Shown here: positions 1,840 through 10,951 of the stretch, piece by piece
How the letters are laid out: each line of letters begins with the position of its first letter
Numbering within the stretch: the stretch's first letter is position 1
Source of the DNA: a virus
IMG/VR virus record: IMGVR_UViG_3300045988_174840
Strand: one strand, 5' to 3'
DNA: 10,951 bases
Translations under genes and position numbers: made by a program
The notes under the pieces: generated by a model
Told to the model about the DNA's origin: nothing
Databases searched by the model: none
What the model saw: only the letters and a program-made list of their open reading frames with translations

Positions 1840-2342
1840 TTCCAATTTTGCACGATTCTCAGAGGAGCGTTACAACAACCAGAAGCCAAAGCACTTTCTC
1901 CTCTTGTTAAAGAGGAAGAAACATCTCCACGAGCTACTAGTTTACCGCATTTTTTGCAATAGATTTCATACTTATACAGATCACGATGAGGTTTCCATAT
2001 CTGTCTTTCCGCGAATCGTTTAGGATTTTTAATTCCCATTCTTCGCATCTCTGCTTTCCAATACATATCATGACCATGAGGTTTTCCAGTATCCCATATT
2101 ACAAAAGCATGAGCCAATTCATGCATTGTCGTAGTAATAATTGCTTCTTTTGTTCCAAATTTTAATAATTTTTCAGAAAATTCAATAGATTCAATGTTCA
2201 TAGTACGATCATTTGTATGTTCAAATACAACTCGACCTAACATAGTAACTAAATTAGGATTAATTACGATTGGACAGTAAATTGTTTTATTTCTTTCTTT
2301 TGCGATATAATTACATAAGCTAAGCATTTCTTTTTCAGTCAT
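1836..2342 (-). CDS. SprT-like zinc metalloprotease (168 aa): HExxH domain plus C-terminal zinc ribbon
   Basis: TMHELAHAF (HExxH) is followed by the downstream His/Asp of SprT/Wss1-like folds. The C-terminus has CKKCGK...GCCNAP (a Cys4 ribbon). The gene lies directly upstream of the AAA ATPase on the same strand. Confidence 0.75.
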   Translation of the reverse strand: MTEKEMLSLCNYIAKERNKTIYCPIVINPNLVTMLGRVVFEHTNDRTMNIESIEFSEKLLKFGTKEAIITTTMHELAHAFVIWDTGKPHGHDMYWKAEMRRMGIKNPKRFAERQIWKPHRDLYKYEIYCKKCGKLVARGDVSSSLTRGESALASGCCNAPLRIVQNWN

Positions 2343-2406
2343 ATATTATATACCTCTTCATATTTTATTTTATTTCATTTCAATAGAGAATTACAGTATT
2401 AATTCT

Positions 2407-2426
2407 TAGTTAATTGTTATTAACTA
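2407..2426. promoter_or_regulatory. 20-bp palindrome TAGTTAAT-TGTT-ATTAACTA between the divergent SprT-like and HTH genes. Candidate operator.
   Basis: Perfect 8-bp inverted arms seen directly in the sequence. It sits in the divergent promoter region. Confidence 0.35.
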
Positions 2427-2509
2427 TATAACTTTTTTCTTTTAATATATATATTATATTATAATTTTATAAAAAAATCAATGAGAAATTATCGGCAAGT
2501 AGTTAAATA

Positions 2510-2538
2510 TTGAAAAAGTATAAAAAATATGTTATAAT
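2510..2538 (+). promoter_or_regulatory. Sigma-A promoter TTGAAA-17-TGtTATAAT for the small HTH gene
   Basis: TTGAAA is at 2510-2515 and TG-extended TATAAT at 2533-2538. The ORF-track start at 2510 is the TTG of this -35 hexamer. Confidence 0.6.
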
Positions 2539-2572
2539 ATTTAATATAAACAAGAGAAAAGAGGACACGGGA

Positions 2573-2749
2573 TTGACAAGAGAAGAATTAAGTGCGGAAT
2601 TGGGTATAAGTGAGAATAGAATATTACGTCACTGGCGGGAAGTGTGTAATAGCTATGAGCGGATTGGGATTAAGTTGATTAAAAGAGGGAAGGGAAAAAA
2701 CGCGGAGTATGGTATTTTAAAAAAAGACGAGACTATAGCAAGATTTTAG
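2573..2749 (+). CDS. Small HTH DNA-binding protein (58 aa) with a TTG start. The ORF-track N-terminus at 2510..2572 is promoter sequence, not coding.
   Basis: The SD AAAGAGGA (2557-2565) sits 7 nt before the in-frame TTG at 2573. Product MTREELSAELGISENRILRHW..., a helix-turn-helix pattern. Confidence 0.5.
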   Translation: MTREELSAELGISENRILRHWREVCNSYERIGIKLIKRGKGKNAEYGILKKDETIARF

Positions 2750-3253
2750 GTGTAGGTGAGGGTATTTATGGTAACGGTTGAAAATACAGATGGGACTATA
2801 GATGTGTATGGTAATCTTGGTTGCGTAATCATATAAATATAGAGCGAAACAAAAGAGAAAGAATCGGGGAATTATGTAAATATTTTATTTCTGGAAAAAT
2901 ATGTGGCGGCAAGGAGAAAATTTTAATAAAAGATATTGATAATAACTATACTAGATGTCTTTCATATGAATCGGAATAAGAAGAGGAGTTTGTTGCGGAT
3001 GAAGCTGGATATAAAGATCTTTGAAGTAAGAATTGCCGCATATAAAAAATAGAGGATTTTCTTTGGAGAGAATTTTAAGATAAGAGGATATTATGACGAG
3101 AAAAGTTTAACTGTTTTGTTGAAAGACGAAATTAAATGTCGAAATGTACACTTTTTCAACAAAATTGTTAAAAAAATATGTTTATATTAAAAGGACGAAA
3201 TTTGTTAAGTTTCTTCCAAAAATTTTAAAGAAAAGTGAAAGGAGTTTAACAAA

Positions 3254-3868
3254 ATGGAAAATTTAACGAATATAATGTATTTATATCTATTGATTCATCA
3301 AGGACATTTTGAAAAGGTGAATTATAGTAAGATATCTAAAGAGTTAGGTGTAACTAGACAAACACTATCAAAACAATATAATTCATTACTAGATAATGAA
3401 ATGATAATAAAAGATGATTTTGGTTTTATTAAAGTTAAAGAAGTTTTAGAATTTGATGAAGAAGATTTAGAAATTATTAAAAATAAAATAGTAGAATATC
3501 CTTCTTCTTATATTGGATATTTACTATTAAAAAGAAGATTATTATACGAAACAGATGCTTCTATTTGTAGTATACTAAAGATAAGTGAAAAATTTATTAA
3601 GAATTATCAACAAAAAATTATTTTTGATAAGAATAATGGAGAAGAAGATGTAGTAAACTATATATATGCTATTGTTTTAAATAAAGAAATAAAGTACGTA
3701 GGTTCAACAGAAGATTTAATAAACAGGATACAAATTCATTGCAATAAAAGAAAGTTTTTAGCAGAGAATAATTTTATTATTTTAGAAAAATGTTCGAGGA
3801 AGAATAGATTTGATAGAGAATCTTTTTATAGAAAGTTATTTAATCCAGAATGGAATACAATTATTTAG
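3254..3868 (+). CDS. Fusion protein: N-terminal winged-HTH + C-terminal GIY-YIG nuclease domain (204 aa)
   Basis: SD AAAGGAG is 9 nt upstream. The N-terminal NYSKISKELGVTRQTLSKQYNSL is wHTH-like. The C-terminal NYIYAIV...KYVGSTEDLINRIQIH...FDRESFY...NPEWN matches GIY-x(10)-YIG with the conserved Arg, His, Glu and Asn. Confidence 0.75.
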   Translation: MENLTNIMYLYLLIHQGHFEKVNYSKISKELGVTRQTLSKQYNSLLDNEMIIKDDFGFIKVKEVLEFDEEDLEIIKNKIVEYPSSYIGYLLLKRRLLYETDASICSILKISEKFIKNYQQKIIFDKNNGEEDVVNYIYAIVLNKEIKYVGSTEDLINRIQIHCNKRKFLAENNFIILEKCSRKNRFDRESFYRKLFNPEWNTII

Positions 3869-3879
3869 AGGAAGGAAAA

Positions 3880-4239
3880 ATGGAAACTAGAGAAAATCAA
3901 AAGGTGGTTACAACTATGAAAGCTTTACATGACAGTAATAATTTATATTCTCCAGTTAATATTGAAGCAGCAAGTAAAGCAATGTCTTTGTTAAAACCTA
4001 ATACTTTTAAAATTTGGTTTTATTTAGGAAAAAACCAAGATCAATATACTTTTGCATTATCTAAAATAGATGTTATGAAATTTTGTAATATATCGCGGTC
4101 TACTTATTTATCTTCTATAAAGGAATTGATTGATACACATTATCTAGTTCCAGATAAAGATGGCTCTAATCATTATAATTTTTATGAATTTCCTCAAGAA
4201 GTAGAAGATGATTTGATTATAACAATAAATAAAGGATAA
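3880..4239 (+). CDS. Winged-HTH DNA-binding protein (119 aa), a possible origin-binding or regulatory protein
   Basis: GAGGAAGGAAAA precedes the ATG at 3880; the ORF-track start at 3850 lies inside the upstream gene. FKIWFYLGKNQDQYTFALSKIDVMKFCNISRSTYLSSIKELIDTHYL resembles replisome-organiser/Rep-type wHTH. The iteron region begins 10 bp after its stop. Confidence 0.65.
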   Translation: METRENQKVVTTMKALHDSNNLYSPVNIEAASKAMSLLKPNTFKIWFYLGKNQDQYTFALSKIDVMKFCNISRSTYLSSIKELIDTHYLVPDKDGSNHYNFYEFPQEVEDDLIITINKG

Positions 4240-4249
4240 AATAAAGATA

Positions 4250-4289
4250 GGTATAATTTTAATACCCTTAAGGGTATTAAAATTATACC
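4250..4289. repeat. Perfect 18-bp inverted repeat GGTATAATTTTAATACCC-TTAA-GGGTATTAAAATTATACC (an iteron core in inverted orientation)
   Basis: The arms 4250-4267 and 4272-4289 are exact reverse complements. Confidence 0.9.
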
Positions 4290-4291
4290 TC

Positions 4292-4318
4292 AGTGGTATT
4301 AAAATTATACCAGAAATA
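4292..4318 (+). repeat. Iteron-like 27-bp direct repeat AGTGGTATTAAAATTATACCAGAAATA, copy 1. The core GGTATTAAAATTATACC also occurs at 4273-4289.
   Basis: Identical to 4466-4492. Both copies are followed by similar AT-rich TATATTATA tracts. Confidence 0.85.
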
Positions 4319-4338
4319 ATACATATATTATATTATAA

Positions 4339-4406
4339 AAGAAGTAATTTCATTACTTCGTATTCAAGCACTTCGTGCTTTCATACTCGTAATGAAATTA
4401 CTTCTT
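4339..4406. repeat. Large composite palindrome: 18-bp outer arms AAGAAGTAATTTCATTAC / GTAATGAAATTACTTCTT enclosing an inner hairpin AGCAC-TTC-GTGCT
   Basis: The outer arms 4339-4356 and 4389-4406 are exact reverse complements. The inner hairpin is at 4367-4379. Confidence 0.85.
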
Positions 4407-4465
4407 AGCCGCCGATAATTTTGCAAAATGTCGAAAAAGTGTAACACAATATAATATAATATAAT

Positions 4466-4492
4466 AGTGGTATTAAAATTATACCAGAAATA
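4466..4492 (+). repeat. Iteron-like 27-bp direct repeat, copy 2
   Basis: Exact copy of 4292-4318, 174 bp away. Confidence 0.85.
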
Positions 4493-4545
4493 TTACATAT
4501 TATACTATATTATATTATATAACTATTATATAATAATAATAATAT

Positions 4546-4582
4546 AGGTAATGTATCATACCTTCGGTATGATACATTACCT
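4546..4582. repeat. Perfect 17-bp-stem hairpin AGGTAATGTATCATACC-TTC-GGTATGATACATTACCT (a UUCG-type loop)
   Basis: Exact inverted repeat. It lies at the boundary between the AT-rich origin-like region and the purine tract. Confidence 0.85.
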
Positions 4583-4599
4583 TAGTGTAAATTAAAATG

Positions 4600-5400
4600 A
4601 AGAGTTTTATGCGGGGTGGGGTATTTAGTAGTTGAATCCGCTTTGTTTTAGAGGGACTCTTGTTTAATTTTAAAATGTCAAGGAACGTTTTAAAAAATGA
4701 TTTGAAAATTTTAAGGTTTAAGTAAATTAGGAAAGTTTTTCGGAAGGCATGAGAAAAAGTAAGAAAAGAAGTATGGTATATTTAGAGAATGGCAAAGAAT
4801 ATTACTGAATAATAACAAAGAGTTAGAGAGTTTTGTTAAAAACGAGTTATGGTTTTTTGGTTAGAAAAGTGTGGAAGAGGGTATTTAAATTATAAGAGAA
4901 GTATGGGAGTGCGGAATTGAATTTAATTAAAGTGCTTCCGCATTTAAAAAGCAAGGTTAAATAAAAATTGCGGGTTACAGAATTGCTTAAATAAAATTAT
5001 TAAAATTTTGCGTGAGGAGTTTGATTTTGGAGAGAATTAAGGGTAGCTTTAATAAAATATAAAGATTGGATTAAAGGTGCGTAAGGTTAAGATAATAAAA
5101 TATTTTAGAATTAGAGGGAATTGATGATAGGTTAATAAAAATAATAAGACTGAGTAAAGAGAATTTAATGTTTGGATTAAGAGAAAGTATAAGTTAGATT
5201 AAGAGAGAAGAAGGTTGAAGTATATAAAATAATAAGCGGAAGTGAGGATTTTGAGATTGGGTTAAGAGAGGAGTGAGATTAGAGTGAGAGAGCGTAGAAT
5301 TGGAGTGTAGAGAGGATGAGAGTGAGGCGTGAGTGGAGAAAGGATAGAGCGAGGCTGAAAAAATGCGAGAAAAAGGTGAAAAAAATTGTGAGAGTGAAGT
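4600..5400 (+). repeat. ~800-bp non-coding tract that is almost cytosine-free on the + strand (G/A/T only). It carries degenerate GATTAAGAGAG-type repeats.
   Basis: By eye there are about 40 C in about 800 nt, against abundant G. The motif (G/A)GATTAAGAGAG(G/A)AG recurs near 5068, 5174, 5196 and 5258. There is no SD-led ORF of meaningful length. Confidence 0.8.
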
Positions 5401-5430
5401 GCTCAGCCTCACTCTCCCTATCCTACCTCA
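5301..5430. repeat. Long imperfect inverted repeat GAGAGGATGAGAGTGAGGCGTGAG / GCTCAGCCTCACTCTCCCTATCCTACCTC at the 3' end of gene 5438..5833. Candidate terminator or structured element.
   Basis: Arms at about 5301-5330 and 5401-5430 pair over about 20 bp with one bulge. The strand composition flips exactly here. Confidence 0.5.
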
Positions 5431-5437
5431 GAGCTCT

Positions 5438-5833
5438 TTATACGAGCCCAGAGAGGATTTTTCTAATAATTTCATCATCTGATAAAGCTTTTTCATTCTC
5501 CCGTTTTACATCTCTTTTTAAATCTGTATCTACTCTTTTAATTCCAAATGATCTTCCCCTTGGAATATCACCCATTTTACCAAAAGCTTCAATAGTCTTT
5601 TCCATCTTAGTAAACTCTGTCATAAGATTTTTTCTATCCTCAGCAGACTCTTTTTTATCAATAGCTCCAAGAGCAATTCCATACGCTACAAACGCGTCAA
5701 CCAATTTGTTTCTCGCATCTACAATCGCCTTTGTGCGGGTTTCCTTAGTCTGCTCCGCCTCGATTTCAGCTCTTACCGCCTTAAGAATTTCATCTGTTGT
5801 TTTGCCTTCTGCGATCATTCTTTTAATATCCAT
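5438..5833 (-). CDS. Hypothetical alpha-helical protein (131 aa)
   Basis: SD AAAGGAGA is 7 nt before the ATG. Its own promoter lies at 5881-5909. Codon usage is visibly GC-richer (GCG/GCC/CGC) than neighbouring genes. No motif recognised. Confidence 0.65.
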   Translation of the reverse strand: MDIKRMIAEGKTTDEILKAVRAEIEAEQTKETRTKAIVDARNKLVDAFVAYGIALGAIDKKESAEDRKNLMTEFTKMEKTIEAFGKMGDIPRGRSFGIKRVDTDLKRDVKRENEKALSDDEIIRKILSGLV

Positions 5834-5880
5834 AGTATGTTCTCCTTTTGAAATGTTTATTTGTTTTTCTTTATGTATAT

Positions 5881-5909
5881 ATTATATCAAAAAATTATAG
5901 AAAATTCAA
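5881..5909 (-). promoter_or_regulatory. Promoter TTGAAT-17-TGaTATAAT, proximal promoter of gene 5438..5833
   Basis: The reverse complement reads TTGAAT tttctataatttttga TATAAT. Confidence 0.55.
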
Positions 5910-6023
5910 AGGGGAAGACATCTTTCTAGCTATTGTTGGGCTTAATTAGTTTCCAAAAATTTTAAATGAGATAAGGCTCGACGTAAAAATGGAAGGCGGA
6001 AAATAAAAATGGCTTTTTTTACT

Positions 6024-6052
6024 ATTATATCATATATTTTGTTAAAAATCAA
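6024..6052 (-). promoter_or_regulatory. Promoter TTGATT-17-TGaTATAAT with no ORF directly downstream; reads into the long leader towards gene 5438..5833
   Basis: The reverse complement reads TTGATT tttaacaaaatatatga TATAAT. Confidence 0.5.
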
Positions 6053-6187
6053 GCGGAGAGAGGTGAGGTATGTTAAAATTGCGGGATTCTAGAGTAGTGA
6101 TTCAAAATTCCAAACATCTAGGAAAAAAGCCCATATAGGCGATCTTTGTGGTAGGTCGGATCCGAGTCCTTTGAACTCGGACCGCTG

Positions 6188-6216
6188 ATTATATCACAGC
6201 CGCCGCGTTTTGTCAA
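6188..6216 (-). promoter_or_regulatory. Consensus promoter TTGACA-17-TGaTATAAT. Its transcript would begin at the 6154-6185 hairpin.
   Basis: The reverse complement reads TTGACA aaacgcggcggctgtga TATAAT. Confidence 0.6.
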
Positions 6217-6435
6217 TAGGCAAATTATATAAATTTTTCATTATTTTTTTAGTAATATTGCACAAAAAGTCATTTTTACCAAAAATTTCATTAAAAATAG
6301 GATTTTTTTTGGTAAAAATGACTAAAATAAATAAAAATGTACAAAAAAATAGCCAAAAACCGCGTAATTTTTGGCTATTTTATATAGAATATAGAATTTT
6401 ATTGAATTTTTATAAGAAATTTTAGTTATTTTGTA

Positions 6436-6472
6436 TAGAATAGTCAGAAATGTAAATTTTCTGACTATTCTA
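6436..6472. terminator. 15-bp perfect hairpin TAGAATAGTCAGAAA-TGTAAAT-TTTCTGACTATTCTA, 27 nt after the stop of gene 6499..6900. Possible terminator. Two further inverted repeats lie upstream at 6268-6323 and 6350-6377.
   Basis: Exact inverted repeat. The T-run is modest (AATTTTTAG on the + side), so the terminator function is uncertain. Confidence 0.4.
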
Positions 6473-6498
6473 CGTAATTTTTAGTTACCTTGAACTGC

Positions 6499-6900
6499 TT
6501 ACTCCTCTACAGCTTCCTCTTCCTCTTCCTCTTTTGCAAGAGAGAAATAAGGAACTCTTTTTTCAACTGTTCTAACTACCTCTCCAGATTCGATAAGCTG
6601 TTTAAGAAGAGCCGATAATTTCTGAGAAGAAAGTTTACTCATTTCAGAGTTTTCCTTAATCATGGTTGAAACTGTAACAGGTTTATCAAATAACTCCAAA
6701 GCTACAAGAATAAGTTTTTTGACTTCCTCATTTTCTTTCTGGTTTTTGGTTTTTTTACCGCTGGAAGATTTTTTATTCAACAGCTCGATTTCATGTCTGA
6801 GAAAGTTAAGTGCTTCTTCTTTTGGTTCAAAGCTACTTTCTTCCAGAAAAGCACTGATAGTTTCAAACCAATCTTTTTTTGTCATTTTGTCTTTCATCAT
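6499..6900 (-). CDS. Winged-helix-like protein with a poly-Glu C-terminal tail (~133 aa), paralog A. Start is ATG 6900 (or 6897); the ATG at 6906 is too close to the SD.
   Basis: The C-terminal 85 aa (KPVTVSTMIKENSEMSKLSSQKLSALLKQLIESGEVVRTVEKRVPYFSLAKEEEEEE) are about 85% identical to 8803..9210. Helix-turn-helix-wing pattern. Promoter at 6934-6962. Confidence 0.75.
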   Translation of the reverse strand: MMKDKMTKKDWFETISAFLEESSFEPKEEALNFLRHEIELLNKKSSSGKKTKNQKENEEVKKLILVALELFDKPVTVSTMIKENSEMSKLSSQKLSALLKQLIESGEVVRTVEKRVPYFSLAKEEEEEEAVEE

Positions 6901-6933
6901 ATTCATTACCTCTTTCTTTCTTTTGATATATTT

Positions 6934-6962
6934 ATTATAGCATACTTTTTTGTTTTTGTCAA
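6934..6962 (-). promoter_or_regulatory. Consensus promoter TTGACA-17-TGcTATAAT followed by the conserved leader ATATCAAAAGAAAGAGG
   Basis: The reverse complement reads TTGACA aaaacaaaaaagtatgc TATAAT. Confidence 0.6.
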
Positions 6963-6978
6963 TTACTTTTTTTATTTT

Positions 6979-7182
6979 TTAATTTTTTCCAAGATACTCT
7001 TCAAGATGCTCGTTTAAGAAATTTATAGTTTCATCCAACCCGCAAATCTCACAAAAGTTTTTAAAAGCTTTTTCAAGTTCTTTTTTTCTAGTTGCTTTTA
7101 TTAATTTAATACAACTCTCATAATCTTCTTTTGTAATAACAAAAGGAACGCATCCATCTTTTTTCAATGTAAATTTTTCCAT
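6979..7182 (-). CDS. Hypothetical small protein (67 aa, several Cys)
   Basis: SD AGAGAGG is 9 nt before the ATG. Promoter at 7215-7243. Confidence 0.55.
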   Translation of the reverse strand: MEKFTLKKDGCVPFVITKEDYESCIKLIKATRKKELEKAFKNFCEICGLDETINFLNEHLEEYLGKN

Positions 7183-7214
7183 TTTTATTTGCCTCTCTTT
7201 CTTTTGATATATTT

Positions 7215-7243
7215 ATTGTATCACATCTTTTGACTGCTGTCAA
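7215..7243 (-). promoter_or_regulatory. Consensus promoter TTGACA-17-TGaTACAAT
   Basis: The reverse complement reads TTGACA gcagtcaaaagatgtga TACAAT. Confidence 0.6.
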
Positions 7244-7249
7244 GCACTT

Positions 7250-7669
7250 TTATAAAATATTTTCAGCTTTTAAGTAATCTCTATAGGAAATATAGCCATT
7301 TTCCGCGAGCCACCTATCACAAGCGTTGGATTCTCTCCAATAATACTCCTCCCAGACTGGAAAAGTTATTATTATTTTATCACTTTCTTTTTTAAGAATA
7401 GTAATAATTGTATTAATACAATGTCCTTTACCCTCAAGCCATTCCTTGAAAGTAACCTTTTCTGCCGCTTCAAACGAAATTGTAAATGAGAAATTAAGCT
7501 CTTTTCCTTTTTCTGTGAGAAAATCAGTTAAATAATTTACAAACTCTTCTTCCTCATAGTTACTTTCGTCCAGCAGTGGAGTTTCTAAAAAATGCTCATT
7601 TGCTGGATTATAAAATCCATTTCTTTTGATGTCTTCAATTAACATTTTAACAACTTTTTCAATTTTCAT
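7250..7669 (-). CDS. Hypothetical acidic protein (139 aa)
   Basis: SD AAGGAATGGGA. Promoter at 7705-7733. Glu/Asp-rich; no motif recognised. Confidence 0.6.
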   Translation of the reverse strand: MKIEKVVKMLIEDIKRNGFYNPANEHFLETPLLDESNYEEEEFVNYLTDFLTEKGKELNFSFTISFEAAEKVTFKEWLEGKGHCINTIITILKKESDKIIITFPVWEEYYWRESNACDRWLAENGYISYRDYLKAENIL

Positions 7670-7704
7670 TTTATCCCATTCCTTCTTTTGATTTTTGTAA
7701 TATC

Positions 7705-7733
7705 ATTATATCAAATTTAATTTGGTTTGTCAA
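7705..7733 (-). promoter_or_regulatory. Consensus promoter TTGACA-17-TGaTATAAT
   Basis: The reverse complement reads TTGACA aaccaaattaaatttga TATAAT. Confidence 0.6.
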
Positions 7734-7840
7734 GTGTTTTTTATTTTTTTATAAGGTTTTCGCATAACACTTGACCAAAAGCATTTCCTTATTATTTTCT
7801 ATTGACATAATCTCAAATTGATTTGATTTTGTCAAGTCTT

Positions 7841-8164
7841 TTAAAAATAACTTCCTAAGCTTGTAATAAAAGTGCTTTCTACAATAAGTTTATTATTTAT
7901 ATAATAAGTAAAAGCAATAGAAGTTACATAAACAGCCAGACCTAAGAGTGAACTTTCAAAAGCACATTCCTGAGAGATATTAAATTTATAGTTTTTATGT
8001 TTAGGATTTTCTTTTAAGAAATTGAAAACAGTCTCGCCTAAACAATCGCCTTTATTATTCATTTCCATGTAATTATGTCTTTCAGAGTTCCAAAAACCGT
8101 GACTGTCTAAAAAATCATAAAGGTCTGCCATTGTCTCCTCAAACATTGTTAAATCGTTTGCCAT
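7841..8164 (-). CDS. Hypothetical small acidic protein (107 aa) with a GFW motif and a hydrophobic C-terminus
   Basis: SD AGAGG is 8 nt before the ATG. Promoter at 8200-8228. It shares the L-D-L-x3-GFW-S-E/D motif with 9361..9636. Confidence 0.55.
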   Translation of the reverse strand: MANDLTMFEETMADLYDFLDSHGFWNSERHNYMEMNNKGDCLGETVFNFLKENPKHKNYKFNISQECAFESSLLGLAVYVTSIAFTYYINNKLIVESTFITSLGSYF

Positions 8165-8199
8165 ATTAAATACCTCTTTCTTATTTATTTTATGTATAC

Positions 8200-8228
8200 A
8201 TTATATCAAAAGAAAAAATAAAAGTCAA
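8200..8228 (-). promoter_or_regulatory. Promoter TTGACT-17-TGaTATAAT
   Basis: The reverse complement reads TTGACT tttattttttcttttga TATAAT. Confidence 0.6.
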
Positions 8229-8419
8229 TGGCATTTTGCACAAAGTATAATAAAATATTTTGTCTATTTTGACTATTGACAAGTTTAGCATTGTGCATAA
8301 CAGAGAAAATTGGCGAATTTTGATATAAATTTTTGTTCATTTTACCTATTGACAAAGAATTTTGTGCAAAACAGAGAATTTTGGGATAAAAAATTTTTTA
8401 TTTTTGTGCATTTTTTCTC

Positions 8420-8448
8420 TTGACAAAATTGTTAGCGTGTGATATAAT
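8420..8448 (+). promoter_or_regulatory. Consensus promoter TTGACA-17-TGaTATAAT on the + strand. It forms the left arm of the 8420-8513 palindrome and has no ORF downstream.
   Basis: TTGACA at 8420-8425, 17-nt spacer, TATAAT at 8443-8448. Confidence 0.55.
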
Positions 8449-8457
8449 GGATATTTC

Positions 8458-8480
8458 GGTCGCCTTGATCCAAGGCGACC
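8458..8480. repeat. GC-rich perfect hairpin GGTCGCCTT-GATCC-AAGGCGACC at the centre of the promoter palindrome
   Basis: The 9-bp arms are exact reverse complements. It sits at the predicted +1 of both flanking promoters. Confidence 0.85.
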
Positions 8481-8484
8481 CGCT

Positions 8485-8513
8485 ATTATATCACACTTTC
8501 GGGTGCTTGTCAA
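8485..8513 (-). promoter_or_regulatory. Consensus promoter TTGACA-17-TGaTATAAT on the - strand. It forms the right arm of the palindrome and points toward the small-gene array.
   Basis: The reverse complement reads TTGACA agcacccgaaagtgtga TATAAT. Confidence 0.55.
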
Positions 8514-8802
8514 TAGGCAAAATAAACAAAATTAAAAAATTTTTGAGCATTATCTTTGTTACATTTTCACAAAATTATAGACTGGAACTCTTTGTGCAAC
8601 AATACCAAAATTATAAAAATTTTTTAGCTATTTTTTGTAATTTATGTACATTGACTTTTTTGTTCTCTGGTATTTTTGAATAAAAAACATCCCTCCAGCA
8701 GCGGATTTTTTGTGCAAAAAGTAGAAAAAAAAATGCACAAAAAGGAGGACGGATTTTGTGCAATCCGCCCTCTTGACAAGGTTTATAAGTTACTTTTTAG
8801 TT

Positions 8803-9210
8803 TTACTCTTCTTCCTCAACTTCTTCTTCTTTTGCAAGAGAAAAGTAAGGAACTCTTTTTTCAACTGTCCTGACCACTTTGCCTGCCTCAATCATTTTTT
8901 TCAACAGTGCAGATAACTTCTGAGAAGAAAGCTTACTCATTTCGGCGTTCTCTTTAATCATTGTAGTTACCGTGACAGGTTTACCAAACAGCTCTAAGGC
9001 AATTCCAATAAGTTCCATAAGCTCCTCATTTTCTTTAATGTGAGCTGTTTTCTTTTTGCCTGGTGCTGAAGATTTCTTATTTAACAGTTCAATCTCGTGA
9101 TTGATGAAGTCAAGTGTTTCTATTTTTTTGTCAAAGTTTTCGGTTTTTTCTACGATGCCAACCAGCAGTTTGAAAAAGTCTTTTTTTGTCATTTTTGTTG
9201 TGTTTGTCAT
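8803..9210 (-). CDS. Winged-helix-like protein with an acidic C-terminal tail (135 aa), paralog B
   Basis: SD AAGAGGA is 8 nt before the ATG. Promoter at 9323-9351. The C-terminus KPVTVTTMIKENAEMSKLSSQKLSALLKKMIEAGKVVRTVEKRVPYFSLAKEEEVEEEE matches paralog A. Confidence 0.75.
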   Translation of the reverse strand: MTNTTKMTKKDFFKLLVGIVEKTENFDKKIETLDFINHEIELLNKKSSAPGKKKTAHIKENEELMELIGIALELFGKPVTVTTMIKENAEMSKLSSQKLSALLKKMIEAGKVVRTVEKRVPYFSLAKEEEVEEEE

Positions 9211-9255
9211 AATTAAATTCCTCTTTTCTTTCTTTAAAAATTTTTTTGGTGGCTT

Positions 9256-9292
9256 GCGGTCGGTGGTCGATTTTGCCGACCAACCAAACCGC
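9256..9292. repeat. Imperfect GC-rich stem-loop GCGGTCGGTGGTCG-ATTTTGC-CGACCAACCAAACCGC in the 5' leader of gene 8803..9210
   Basis: Seen directly in the sequence. It shares the CAGCGG-GGTC...GACC theme with the hairpins at 6154-6185 and 8458-8480. Confidence 0.6.
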
Positions 9293-9322
9293 TGAAATTA
9301 TTTACTACTTTGTTACAATACT

Positions 9323-9351
9323 ATTGTACTACTTCTTTTTACTTTTGTCAA
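9323..9351 (-). promoter_or_regulatory. Consensus promoter TTGACA-17-TACAAT followed by the palindromic TTGTAACAA leader element
   Basis: The reverse complement reads TTGACA aaagtaaaaagaagtag TACAAT agtaTTGTAACAAag. Confidence 0.6.
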
Positions 9352-9360
9352 GCACTTTTT

Positions 9361-9636
9361 TTATTTTTTTTGTTCCCACAAAACTACTTGAGTCATAGGC
9401 TTGTTATTTTCAATCCAAGCAAGGGAAAAAGCTACGATGTTAAAAGGATGCTCAAGAAATTCGATATAATCAATATCAAATTCAAAATCCCATTCTTTTT
9501 GATAAGATTCTAACAAGCTATTGATAGCGTTATAGCTATAAGTATAACTATAACTATCACTGTCCCAAAAACCTGCTTTTATTAAGTCATCTTCTAAACG
9601 ATTTAAAATTTTTTCTAACATTATTATCACCTTCAT
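9361..9636 (-). CDS. Hypothetical small strongly acidic protein (91 aa) with a GFW motif
   Basis: SD AAGGAAA is 9 nt before the ATG. Probably co-transcribed with 9699..10073, since no separate consensus promoter was found. Confidence 0.55.
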   Translation of the reverse strand: MKVIIMLEKILNRLEDDLIKAGFWDSDSYSYTYSYNAINSLLESYQKEWDFEFDIDYIEFLEHPFNIVAFSLAWIENNKPMTQVVLWEQKK

Positions 9637-9649
9637 TCAATGTTATTTC

Positions 9650-9678
9650 CTTGCTACCGCTTAATAAGCGGTAGCAAG
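9650..9678. repeat. Perfect 11-bp hairpin CTTGCTACCGC-TTAATAA-GCGGTAGCAAG between genes 9699..10073 and 9361..9636. It overlaps the SD of the downstream gene.
   Basis: Exact inverted repeat. The 3' arm on the minus RNA ends in CAAGGAAAT, which is the SD of gene 9361..9636. Confidence 0.8.
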
Positions 9679-9698
9679 TTTATTAAATTATTTAGTTT

Positions 9699-10073
9699 CT
9701 ATTTCTTTTTTGGCGGTCGATGCTTAATCAAAGAAATTGAATACTCGGACTCACCGATTTTGAAAGTAATTTCTTTTTGTGGATTTGCGATTGCTACACT
9801 TTCAAAGTCCATTTCTTCATTTTCTTTTAAGTAGCTTGCTAAAATCTCAATAATTTTAACTTTTTCTGCATCAAGTTTGATTTCACGCTTTTTCGTGCTT
9901 TTTTTCTCTGGTGTACTCTGGACATAATTCTTAATGCCTTTAGCCTTAATCTCCATTTCTGCCATTTCAAGAGCTTCCTCTTTTGTTACGGGTTCTCCAT
10001 CCGCTTCAAATTCTTTCATAAGCTTAATAGCAAGCTTTTCGATTGCATCTGCGGTCACTGTTGTTTTAGCCAT
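9699..10073 (-). CDS. Hypothetical protein (124 aa), Lys/Glu-rich
   Basis: ATG at 10073 with an AAAGGATG-type SD about 11 nt upstream. Promoter at 10122-10150. Confidence 0.55.
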   Translation of the reverse strand: MAKTTVTADAIEKLAIKLMKEFEADGEPVTKEEALEMAEMEIKAKGIKNYVQSTPEKKSTKKREIKLDAEKVKIIEILASYLKENEEMDFESVAIANPQKEITFKIGESEYSISLIKHRPPKKK

Positions 10074-10096
10074 GTTACATCACATCCTTTTTAAAA

Positions 10097-10160
10097 TTTA
10101 CTATTAACTTGTTACAATGGTATTATATCGCACCTTAGCTTAAAAGTCAAGCATTTTCGT
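10097..10160. repeat. Perfect 64-bp direct repeat, copy A (promoter + leader + last 5 codons of the exonuclease gene)
   Basis: Identical to 10888-10951 at an offset of 791 bp. Confidence 0.9.
10122..10150 (-). promoter_or_regulatory. Consensus promoter TTGACT-17-TATAAT plus a TTGTAACAA leader, lying within the 64-bp direct-repeat copy A. Its -35 overlaps the exonuclease stop codon.
   Basis: The reverse complement reads TTGACT tttaagctaaggtgcga TATAAT accaTTGTAACAAg. Confidence 0.6.
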
Positions 10161-10857
10161 GTAATTCTTTTCTTTTTTTCTGCGGCAGTCTCCAACATGA
10201 CGGCTTAATACTTCTATCCATTTTTTTATGCTGGTCAAAACATTTTTTCATAATTTCAATTTCAATTTTTACATCTTCTAAACCTGTATGAGATTCTACA
10301 AAATCAATATTCTTTTTAATATATTTATAGCATACCTCAGCGTTAGTTAAAAGATTGCCTTTTTCAGACTCAAATCCGTTTTTCTCAGCAAATTTGATAT
10401 AGGTGTTTGTACTTAAAATCATCTGGCAAGCCATATTCCAAATACAAAAATATTCTGTGCCATAAGGGAAAAACCAGCGAATAAAACTTTTGCTATGGTA
10501 TCTAATAGCATTGTTTAATGCTTTTCTATCAAAATTCATATTGTAAGCACCAACTTTTTTCACATTATATTCTTTCATGTCTGCAAACATCTGTTTTCTA
10601 ATATTGAAGATGCTTTTCATGGTTCTTTTTCCGCTTTTTAAATCATCCCAATATTTTGGGATTTTTTTAGCGTAGTAGGCACTATTCATAGCTTCTTTCA
10701 AGTCAATAAATGTCTCAGCGACTACAAAGCTTCTTTCGGTGACAATGTTACCGTGTCTATCTGCAATAGCATAACCAATATCATAAGGGATTGGCTCATT
10801 TACACTATTCGCAGTTTCTGTATCCAATACCATGAAAAACTCTTTTCTTCTACTCAT
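10147..10857 (-). CDS. DEDDh (DnaQ-like) 3'-5' exonuclease, ~236 aa. Start is ATG 10857; the ORF-track start at 10872 is a TTG with no SD.
   Basis: Exo I MVLDTETAN. Exo II VGAYNMNFDRKAL. Exo III HTGLEDV (H-x4-D). GAGGAAA lies 6 nt before ATG 10857. Promoter copy B is at 10913-10941. Confidence 0.8.
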   Translation of the reverse strand: MSRRKEFFMVLDTETANSVNEPIPYDIGYAIADRHGNIVTERSFVVAETFIDLKEAMNSAYYAKKIPKYWDDLKSGKRTMKSIFNIRKQMFADMKEYNVKKVGAYNMNFDRKALNNAIRYHSKSFIRWFFPYGTEYFCIWNMACQMILSTNTYIKFAEKNGFESEKGNLLTNAEVCYKYIKKNIDFVESHTGLEDVKIEIEIMKKCFDQHKKMDRSIKPSCWRLPQKKRKELHENA

Positions 10858-10887
10858 TTTTGATTTCCTCAACTTTCATTTATTTTT

Positions 10888-10951
10888 TTTACTATTAACT
10901 TGTTACAATGGTATTATATCGCACCTTAGCTTAAAAGTCAAGCATTTTCGT
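10888..10951. repeat. Perfect 64-bp direct repeat, copy B (runs to the window edge); contains promoter 10913-10941 for the exonuclease gene
   Basis: Identical to 10097-10160. It includes ...TCAAGCATTTTCGT, the stop codon plus C-terminal codons of an exonuclease-like ORF, which implies a further homologous gene end just beyond the window. Confidence 0.85.

Follow-up and report, generated by a model that had tools for sequence, protein, structure and literature searches.

The described elements that most resemble the one reported here are the rut regions of Rho-dependent terminators, of which lambda tR1 is an example (reviewed in PMC12360218 and PMC6144790). The element is a tract of about 0.8 kb in the virus record IMGVR_UViG_3300045988_174840 of IMG/VR, from which a stretch of 10,951 nucleotides (nt) was analyzed (the window), and it is almost free of C on the plus strand. 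Like a rut region, its minus-sense RNA is untranslated, C-rich, G-poor, and unstructured, and it lies downstream of a gene and ahead of hairpins capable of pausing or terminating transcription. Unlike a rut region, the tract is about ten times longer, is conserved in primary sequence, and contains phased A/T tracts and direct repeats, and its dependence on Rho is presumed. The tract is also like the ROOL and GOLLD RNAs in being a large non-coding element (0.6 to 0.8 kb) a few kb upstream of the same ATPase (phrog_2376). In Enterococcus phage 156, a ROOL RNA and a tRNA cluster precede the homologous ATPase on the same strand, and in other relatives tRNAs, RAGATH-27, or HEARO are found around the ATPase, all in its direction. 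The tract occupies this general position in a clade where no tRNA or ROOL was found within 10 kb. Unlike ROOL and GOLLD, a three-letter tract cannot form ornate G-C-rich folds, and identity with ROOL, GOLLD, or another Rfam RNA was rejected, there being no covariance-model match at E <= 10, no covariation, and no nearby tRNAs. The ROOL of phage 156 was detected at full length (L004, 1903-2479; LR031359.1, about 138655-139231; 262 bits), is absent from the GenBank annotation, and served as the positive control for the Rfam searches.

Other described systems share parts of the layout. The end of the pre-early (first-step-transfer) segment of phage T5 is a non-coding region of repeats and palindromes, the "injection stop signal." Like that region, the tract is long, conserved, and non-coding, has repeats and palindromes, and closes about 9 to 10 kb of small early genes of the host-takeover type. 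Unlike it, the tract is nearly without one base, a feature that the T5 region is not known to have; two-step DNA entry is not known in SPO1-like myoviruses. Like iteron origins, which combine a Rep protein, direct repeats, and an AT-rich region, the locus has direct repeats and an AT-rich stretch adjoining winged helix-turn-helix (wHTH) genes; unlike in those origins, the true iterons (4250-4485) are outside the tract on a separable cassette, and the repeats of the tract are degenerate 10- to 12-mers. Transcription-primed (R-loop) origins are known from T4 (oriF and oriG), ColE1, and lactococcal phage c2 (ori). Like these, the tract has a G-rich, C-poor non-template strand, is non-coding, and is located between gene blocks; unlike these, its hybrid is favored in only 200 of 800 nt, and no promoter or downstream unwinding element was identified.

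The depletion of C was established by exact counting. Positions 4600-5400 contain 317 A, 33 C, 217 G, and 234 T, so that the figure of about 40 C given in an earlier description made by eye from the letters alone (the sequence-only reading) was slightly high, and the depletion that it claimed was borne out. Over the 800 nt of 4590-5389, the 33 C correspond to 4.1%, compared to 15.5% in the remaining window (binomial P = 6e-25; P = 1e-33 for 33 or fewer C conditional on the 246 G+C sites). On the same strand G amounted to 27% and purines to 66.5%, and this was both the lowest-C and the highest-G 800-nt interval of the sequence. Deamination of C to T was rejected as the source of the skew because the strand is purine-rich rather than T-rich, T being below the window average. 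The few C's are concentrated in two small, conserved GC hairpins (4611-4641 and 4911-4941). Since rare C's are found in GCG contexts, a cluster of Chi sites was considered and rejected; only one exact AGCGG is present, and it is not conserved. The GC skew was +0.58 to +0.90 within the tract and dropped to -0.48 within 100 nt of position 5400. The reversal, at about 5395-5405, coincides with the hairpin at 5390-5416 and is as abrupt as had been described, while the long inverted repeat to which it had been assigned (5301-5430) was found to be imperfect and not kept in relatives. A 13-nt inverted repeat (5346-5358 and 5403-5415) is present at the flip.

The tract was concluded to be non-coding. 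No open reading frame (ORF) of at least 40 amino acids (aa) was found on the plus strand between 4240 and 5315, no long ORF was found in any of the six frames of the tract, and no period-3 peak was observed. The sole minus-strand ORF (72 aa, 5194-5412) is of low complexity and is situated at the indel-rich end. The sequence-only reading, which saw no ORF led by a Shine-Dalgarno (SD) sequence, was right that the tract is non-coding. A protein-coding gene, standard or recoded, was rejected on the lack of an open frame and of 3-nt periodicity and on indels of 1, 2, and 11 nt among relatives. A short SD-like ORF at 4750 (19 aa) was also rejected, as its SD spacing is poor and a 2-nt indel in relative L041 breaks the frame. 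No tRNA was found in the window. Rfam searches yielded only three sub-threshold chance matches in the whole window at E <= 1, all of them outside the tract, and only hairpin-type noise in 4200-5500 at E <= 10. BLASTN of 4240-5440 against phage and plasmid collections gave no match.

The genome is that of a Herelleviridae-like gut myovirus of about 137 kb, and its close relatives are contigs of 129 to 138 kb from human-gut samples. Conservation was analyzed in an alignment of fourteen distinct copies (the window and 13 relatives). Every one of the 13 distinct relatives retrieved had the tract at full length. The flanking protein of L026 and L027 is 63 to 65% identical (81 to 83% at the nucleotide level), yet their tract is 89% identical and positions 4590-5000 are 92 to 93% identical; the bias in composition is stronger in these two, whose complementary strand has 1 G per 100 nt over 300 nt. 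Variable columns amounted to 15% in Region A (4590-5000), 24% in Region B (5001-5290), and 60% in Region C (5291-5389), the last of which also showed indels and copy-number changes of its GTGAAAAAA units. In the adjoining 131-aa gene, 29%, 30%, and 48% of the columns were variable at codon positions 1, 2, and 3, respectively, and 32% at fourfold sites and third positions of conserved codons, which were used as a synonymous proxy. Region A was more conserved than this proxy (P = 7e-4), and Region B was not (P = 0.17). Indels were scarce in both.

The substitutions were strongly biased, with A/G variation in 124 of 532 purine columns compared to C/T variation in 24 of 268 pyrimidine columns (P = 4e-7). 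Transversions were few, and T-to-C changes were about 2.6-fold underrepresented in the plus sense. It was therefore deduced that positions keep their purine or pyrimidine class and that C remains excluded. The allele-frequency spectra of the C/T and A/G columns showed no visible difference, and selection against new C's is for this reason not directly demonstrated. The excess of purine-purine over pyrimidine-pyrimidine changes is as seen at third codon positions on the sense strand of the flanking gene. In two 20-kb relatives, 100-nt windows with <=2 G on the gene-sense strand were confined to the tract with a single exception, an AT-rich stretch in L033.

No homologue of the tract was found by nhmmer in 80 loci with ATPases of 46 to 56% identity. 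A scan of the same loci for extreme tracts gave mainly coding hits, and the sole comparable non-coding case, in L078, was a different one. The L078 tract (132-718) is non-coding and GC-rich, with about 550 nt restricted to A, C, and G (T 2%). It adjoins a tyrosine-recombinase-like gene in a phage with an ATPase of 49% identity and does not resemble the present tract in sequence. The exact core GCGGGTTACAGAATTGC was found in IMG/VR only in two contigs already known, and the one match of a 24-nt invariant core in GTDB genomes, within a hydrolase-like ORF, was dismissed as chance. Judged by these searches, the tract is confined to one narrow clade. Because it is non-coding, depleted of C, and better conserved than the adjoining genes, it was concluded to be a selectively maintained, clade-specific element that is probably functional. 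This agrees with the sequence-only reading, which had considered the asymmetry to be far beyond ordinary skew and suggestive of function; both the composition and the retention in every relative retrieved support that view, as does the conservation of the 5' half above the synonymous sites of the neighboring gene.

The nature of the function is less clear-cut, and the reading that we favor is held at a probability of only about 0.3. It is that the tract acts at the RNA level as a directional transcription barrier. That the asymmetry is equally strong in the nonrepetitive Region A argues for the maintenance of a property of a single strand, most simply of an RNA. The tract sits at a 3'-3' junction between leftward small early genes and a rightward island of HTH and GIY-YIG genes. 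Consensus sigma-A promoters on the minus strand (TTGACA-17-TGnTATAAT at 6216, 6962, 7733, and 8513) are located upstream of the tract in the minus sense, and two further minus-strand promoters (5909 and 6052) precede the 131-aa gene. The tract lies downstream of this minus-strand gene and its strong promoters, with a terminator hairpin in between. Leftward RNA polymerases would start at the strong promoters, and some would leak past the terminator at 5416-5390, which is imperfect in that its T run begins 4 nt after the stem. With its 27% C and 4% G, and being untranslated and almost free of structure, the read-through RNA would suit Rho ideally as a substrate; Rho would release the polymerases in the tract, the hairpins at 4582-4546, 4406-4339, and 4290-4249 serving as back-up. 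Rightward transcripts, being G-rich and C-poor, would be immune to Rho.

This proposal is supported by the following data. Compared with the >=80 nt of C-rich, G-poor RNA expected of a rut site, the minus-sense RNA keeps the above composition over 800 nt, and its minimum free energy (MFE) of -40.8 kcal/mol makes it the least structured 800-nt window on either strand (others -74 to -198). The terminator-like hairpins flagged in 2300-6100 (5416-5390, 4582-4546, and 4290-4249) all have T-rich tails on the minus strand, as does the hairpin at 4339-4406 on direct reading of the sequence. L026 and L027 have a different hairpin followed by a T run at the position of 5390-5416. In the minus sense the substitutions are mostly exchanges of C and U, with A to G rare, and the direction shared by the RNA genes around the ATPase of relatives corresponds to the minus strand here; both were counted in favor of the barrier. 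The hairpin at 4339-4406 is a 68-nt compound structure with an inner GCAC-TTCG-GTGC stem-loop (UUCG-type loop) and is kept in L027, where the neighboring sequence differs.

Several observations weigh against a barrier. A rut site needs about 80 nt, not 800. No promoter inside the tract was comparable in quality to those upstream on the minus strand, and none was found there in the minus sense. A function of composition only does not predict the conservation of Region A (which is distal in the minus sense), the phasing of T described below, or the scarcity of indels. Every gene in this genome has the purine-rich strand as its sense strand, and the substitutions in the tract are biased as on a sense strand if the plus strand is so taken; both observations point to the plus sense. 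Variants in the GC mini-hairpins likewise give G.U pairs in the plus sense and A.C mismatches in the minus sense. As no canonical rightward terminator is present, plus-sense RNA from the island probably also crosses the tract. Minus-strand transcription, Rho action at this locus, and the presence of Rho in the host are each presumed. The model does not explain why 800 nt are needed, why Region A is conserved, or why T follows the helical repeat.

The sequence-only reading had listed a protein-binding array, a pyrimidine- or purine-rich RNA, and a structural DNA element as candidates; this list contains the favored explanation and its main rivals and chooses none of them. The rival that survives best is a nucleoprotein assembly site acting at the DNA level (an origin, the boundary of a packaging unit or terminal repeat, a signal that halts ejection, or a regulatory region of curved DNA), which we regard as a possible if doubtful explanation. 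Phased A/T tracts and direct repeats would wrap or align a protein, and the asymmetry would be a side effect of a co-oriented asymmetric motif. This is consistent with the periodicity of T at 10.3 bp in 4601-5000, which was the strongest T signal in the window and was also found in L001, L026, L027, and L028; A was deduced to be in antiphase because A and T taken together show no period. It is also consistent with the anatomy of Region B, where five to six TTAATAAAAT-like AT blocks (4988, 4997, 5049, 5092, 5132, and about 5222) occur in one orientation and are among the best-conserved parts, some nearly invariant, while the purine spacers between them toggle between A and G. The region contains only 5 C in 290 nt, and 54 of its 70 variable columns are A/G. 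The purine box TTRGRTTAAGAG occurs as exact copies at 5172, 5194, and 5257 and as degenerate copies at 5066, 5082, 5105, and 5279, all on the plus strand. The (G/A)...AG-like units of the sequence-only reading therefore exist but are weak and degenerate, and over the whole window the 13 matches of this type compared to 6.8 expected are only marginal. GTGAG and GAGTG were each found 6 times compared to 1.5 expected (about four-fold; z about 4), and in Region C an array was detected at 5358-5391 by Tandem Repeats Finder (TRF).

The scarcity of indels in Regions A and B would also suit an assembly site, as would the bracketing of an early block of about 9 kb by the tract and a second non-coding region of 1.27 kb (L033, 256-1523), an arrangement that resembles the pre-early and terminal-repeat modules of T5 and SPO1. 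In the second region, TGTCAATAGG...ACAAA repeats occur five to seven times, in both orientations, together with (ATA)n and AT microsatellites and a consensus promoter; an origin, the boundary of a terminal repeat, and a cluster of promoters are possible identities. The repeats of the tract alone fail to explain the asymmetry, however, because Region A is nonrepetitive and equally asymmetric, and the free exchange of A and G alters the type of base pair and would harm sequence-specific binding. Many contigs end at 4400-4580, which could be taken for physical genome ends; this was rejected because complete contigs of 134 to 138 kb hold the tract internally, and palindromes, AT repeats, and strain variation explain the breaks better. 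A further objection is that the only adjoining DNA-binding genes belong to a separable mobile island.

The data for this island come from the zone to the left of the tract (4249-4582). The motif GGTAT-N7-ATACC occurs four times in 4250-4485 and zero times in shuffles; the zone also contains a perfect 42-bp palindrome (4249-4290), and the motif copies include 4295-4311 and 4469-4485. These sites are probably operators of the HTH proteins of the island. The viral contig L018 lacks the tract and has the same sites, a comparable long hairpin, and genes homologous to those of 204 aa and 129 aa; there the cassette is followed by a different HTH gene and different repeats. Conversely, L027 retains the tract and lacks part of the AT/iteron zone. 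Together these suggest that the HTH/GIY-YIG genes and their sites are a mobile cassette, shared with an unrelated viral contig, and that, on the genomes compared, the iteron zone is evolutionarily separable from the tract. The contiguity of the two that had been described is therefore a physical abutment, not a shared evolution. The Rep/Par-like iteron array that had been proposed received no support: the iterons move as a cassette, and repeat search and TRF found no true iterons (near-identical direct repeats of 17 to 22 bp) in 4600-5290, only degenerate 10- to 12-mers. An iteron origin or Par centromere array was rejected on this lack of repeats and on the unstable linkage of the tract to the HTH genes, which L018 has with their sites but without the tract. 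Most matches of the iteron GGTATTAAAATTATACC in IMG/VR were due to chance, and only L018 was informative; those in L010 and L016 were in the coding sequence of an apparently TAG-recoded phage and those in L009 in tracts among small ORFs. In-frame TAG codons within an apparent gene at 3500-4400 of L010 suggest the recoding. For the 129-aa gene, a peptide-pattern search gave no relative in IMG/VR confirmed by tblastn, the homologous gene in L018 being recognized at the DNA level. The boundary hairpin (4546-4582) shows a compensatory T>A/A>T exchange in L026 and replacement of the whole stem in L027. Its loop (4563-4565) is TTC or GAA among genomes otherwise 97 to 99% identical (for example, L037 and L031), which was taken to mean inversion at the DNA level of the kind made by hairpin- or cruciform-mediated strand switching.

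A long non-coding RNA of plus sense, or a long 3' extension of the island operon, is a rather doubtful but substantial alternative. Rightward transcription would yield a purine-rich, C-poor RNA that might serve as an antisense RNA against the early genes or as a ligand of a host factor. Without C it would resist Rho, and since its pairs are only A-U and G.U, changes between A and G would be neutral and U would be conserved. The skew shares its sign with that of every sense strand in the window and exceeds it, the excess of purine-purine changes points the same way, conservation declines from 5' to 3' in this sense, and variants in the hairpins at 4911-4941 and 4740-4765 are compatible with G.U pairing. 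A strong plus-strand promoter (2510-2538; 11/12 with TG) serves the island, no canonical terminator follows before the tract, and the promoter-like TTTAGA-18-TAAAAT at 4647-4676 is weak but invariant. Abundant long non-coding RNAs near tRNA genes have been reported in Staphylococcus Herelleviridae (review, PMC10383478). Against such an RNA, the plus-sense MFE of -119 kcal/mol was not better than that of shuffles (z = -1.5), and RNAalifold on this strand gave only one-sided exchanges of G.U and A-U inside the tract, with true compensatory pairs only in two boundary hairpins. A generic structured non-coding RNA was rejected on these grounds. Sponges for CsrA, for ribosomes via SD sequences, or for the anti-SD also failed, since GGA and GGAG/GAGG/AGGA were at or below dinucleotide-shuffle expectation and GGAGG was absent. 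The conserved sequence has no strong promoter, no Rfam family was matched even at E <= 10, and the transcript would run without a terminator head-on into the early genes.

It is unlikely that the tract is the gene for a three-letter RNA of about 0.8 kb, either an essentially G-free, structure-free decoy of minus sense or a C-free, Rho-proof antisense RNA. In the former version, RNA made in bulk from the consensus early promoters would soak up or misdirect, in host takeover, a host factor with affinity for single-stranded pyrimidine RNA, Rho being the most plausible one. The T-free tract of L078 hints that non-coding tracts missing one base may recur in phages and have so far gone undescribed. 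Still more improbable is an absence of present function, with the tract a decayed slippage or expansion product of a C-free, purine-rich unit whose purine-richness persists since most mutations are transitions and the relatives are close. The copy-number variation of short units in Region C, the near-synonymous rate of Region B, the similar allele-frequency spectra, and the lack of remote homologues outside the clade fit such a remnant; the conservation of Region A, the full length in every relative (including those with the most divergent flanking protein), the shortage of T-to-C changes, and the rarity with which phage genomes retain 0.8 kb of junk do not. R-loop-primed replication, in which a plus-sense purine-rich RNA hybridized to its template next to the AT-rich zone (4440-4545) would prime DNA synthesis, gained no specific support and is very improbable, since the strongly positive skew, the adjoining unwinding-like zone, and, in 5201-5400, an advantage of the hybrid over the DNA duplex of about 25 kcal per 200 nt (nearest-neighbor parameters after Sugimoto 1995 and SantaLucia 1998) are set against neutral values in the other 600 nt, ordinary genes that reach similar energies, a near absence of G runs, the lack of a convincing plus-strand promoter, and an AT-rich zone that is upstream rather than downstream and partly missing in L027.

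The neighboring genes were also characterized. Those on the minus strand encode the AAA ATPase (phrog_2376, E = 6e-102), an SprT-like protein, a DnaQ-like exonuclease (phrog_20187), and many small ORFs; the ATPase and exonuclease are 44 to 45% identical to proteins of Enterococcus Herelleviridae. The 131-aa protein gave no Pfam match and no PDB relative and only a weak MotA-like match in PHROG (E = 0.004), and its AlphaFold model is helical and of low confidence (predicted local distance difference test, pLDDT, 64). On the minus strand of 5881-10941, 40 promoter-like sites were found compared to 21 expected, consensus or near-consensus with an extended -10; those at 6216, 6962, 7733, and 8513 match at 12/12 positions. 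These dense sigma-A promoters stand before small genes, and the block looks like an early host-takeover module. Small early genes with dense sigma-A promoters resemble the early or host-takeover modules of SPO1-like phages. The minus strand at 6216-6105 has no ORF. A promoter there matches the consensus perfectly (TTGACA-17-TGATATAAT), and behind it come a stem-loop of 11 bp and a weak hairpin with a run of six T's, a candidate for a small RNA or a leader roughly 70 nt long (fold -24 kcal/mol, z = -1.75). Across relatives, the entire 665 nt between the flanking genes (5834-6498) are 89 to 96% identical, above those genes themselves. Two paralogous 135-aa genes (6499-6906 and 8803-9210; about 72% nucleotide identity) have winged-helix-like cores and poly-glutamate C termini and match no family. 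The plus-strand island (2510-4239) encodes small HTH proteins and the 204-aa HTH and GIY-YIG protein. Genes of the island (2400-4240) have a GC skew of +0.43 to +0.65, compared to 0.1 to 0.37 for minus-strand genes in their own sense, which is consistent with a background positive skew of the plus strand on which a coding skew is superimposed.

Table 1. Coordinates of the tract, its parts, and adjoining features
Feature	Position	Strand	Remarks
Boundary hairpin	4546..4582		17-bp perfect arms, 3-nt loop; structure conserved, sequence not
Whole tract	4583..5389		Non-coding; C 4%, G 27%, purines 66.5% on plus strand; present in 13 distinct relatives
Region A	4583..5000		Most conserved part; T and A phased at 10.3 bp
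Mini-hairpin GCGG...CCGC	4611..4641		Carries 4 rare C's; conserved, varies only in L040 at first stem base
Mini-hairpin GCGGAA...TTCCGC	4911..4941		Conserved; 6 rare C's, 5 in stem arms and C4935 in loop
Two overlapping AT blocks TAAATAAAAT / TTATTAAAAT	4988..5006	+	Largely conserved in alignment of relatives
Region B	5001..5290		Degenerate direct repeats (AT block and purine box); variation almost all between A and G
AT block TTAATAAAAT	5049..5058	+	Invariant in alignment of relatives
Purine box TTGGATTAAAGG (degenerate copy)	5066..5077	+	Motif scan
AT block ATAATAAAAT	5092..5101	+	Nearly invariant; A/G variation at first base
AT block TTAATAAAAA	5132..5141	+	Motif scan and alignment
Purine box TTGGATTAAGAG	5172..5183	+	Motif scan
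Purine box TTAGATTAAGAG	5194..5205	+	Motif scan
Purine box TTGGGTTAAGAG	5257..5268	+	Motif scan
Region C	5291..5389		Fast-evolving, indel-rich GAGTG/GTGAG runs, then (GTGAAAAAA)n with variable copy number
Terminator hairpin of leftward 131-aa gene	5390..5416	-	T7 run begins 4 nt after stem
131-aa early gene	5438..5833	-	Always adjoins tract in relatives

No earlier description of such a tract was found in literature searches, database families, or annotated records. Virulent phages seldom keep 0.8 kb of non-coding DNA, and here it is kept with one base excluded from one strand and with conservation above that of synonymous sites over half of its length. On any of these readings, an abundant clade of uncultured myoviruses from the human gut offers a well-delimited element that can be tested, and the tract suggests a simple search criterion, namely, long non-coding windows in which one base is below 5%. 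A three-letter RNA or decoy, if true, would be a new kind of phage non-coding RNA. A transcription barrier, if true, would be an unusual, oversized, sequence-conserved variant of a known element; if it insulates in one direction by way of Rho, it would reveal the means by which SPO1-like phages keep strongly transcribed early modules apart from their neighbors and would extend Rho-dependent control to a phage group where it has not been studied before.

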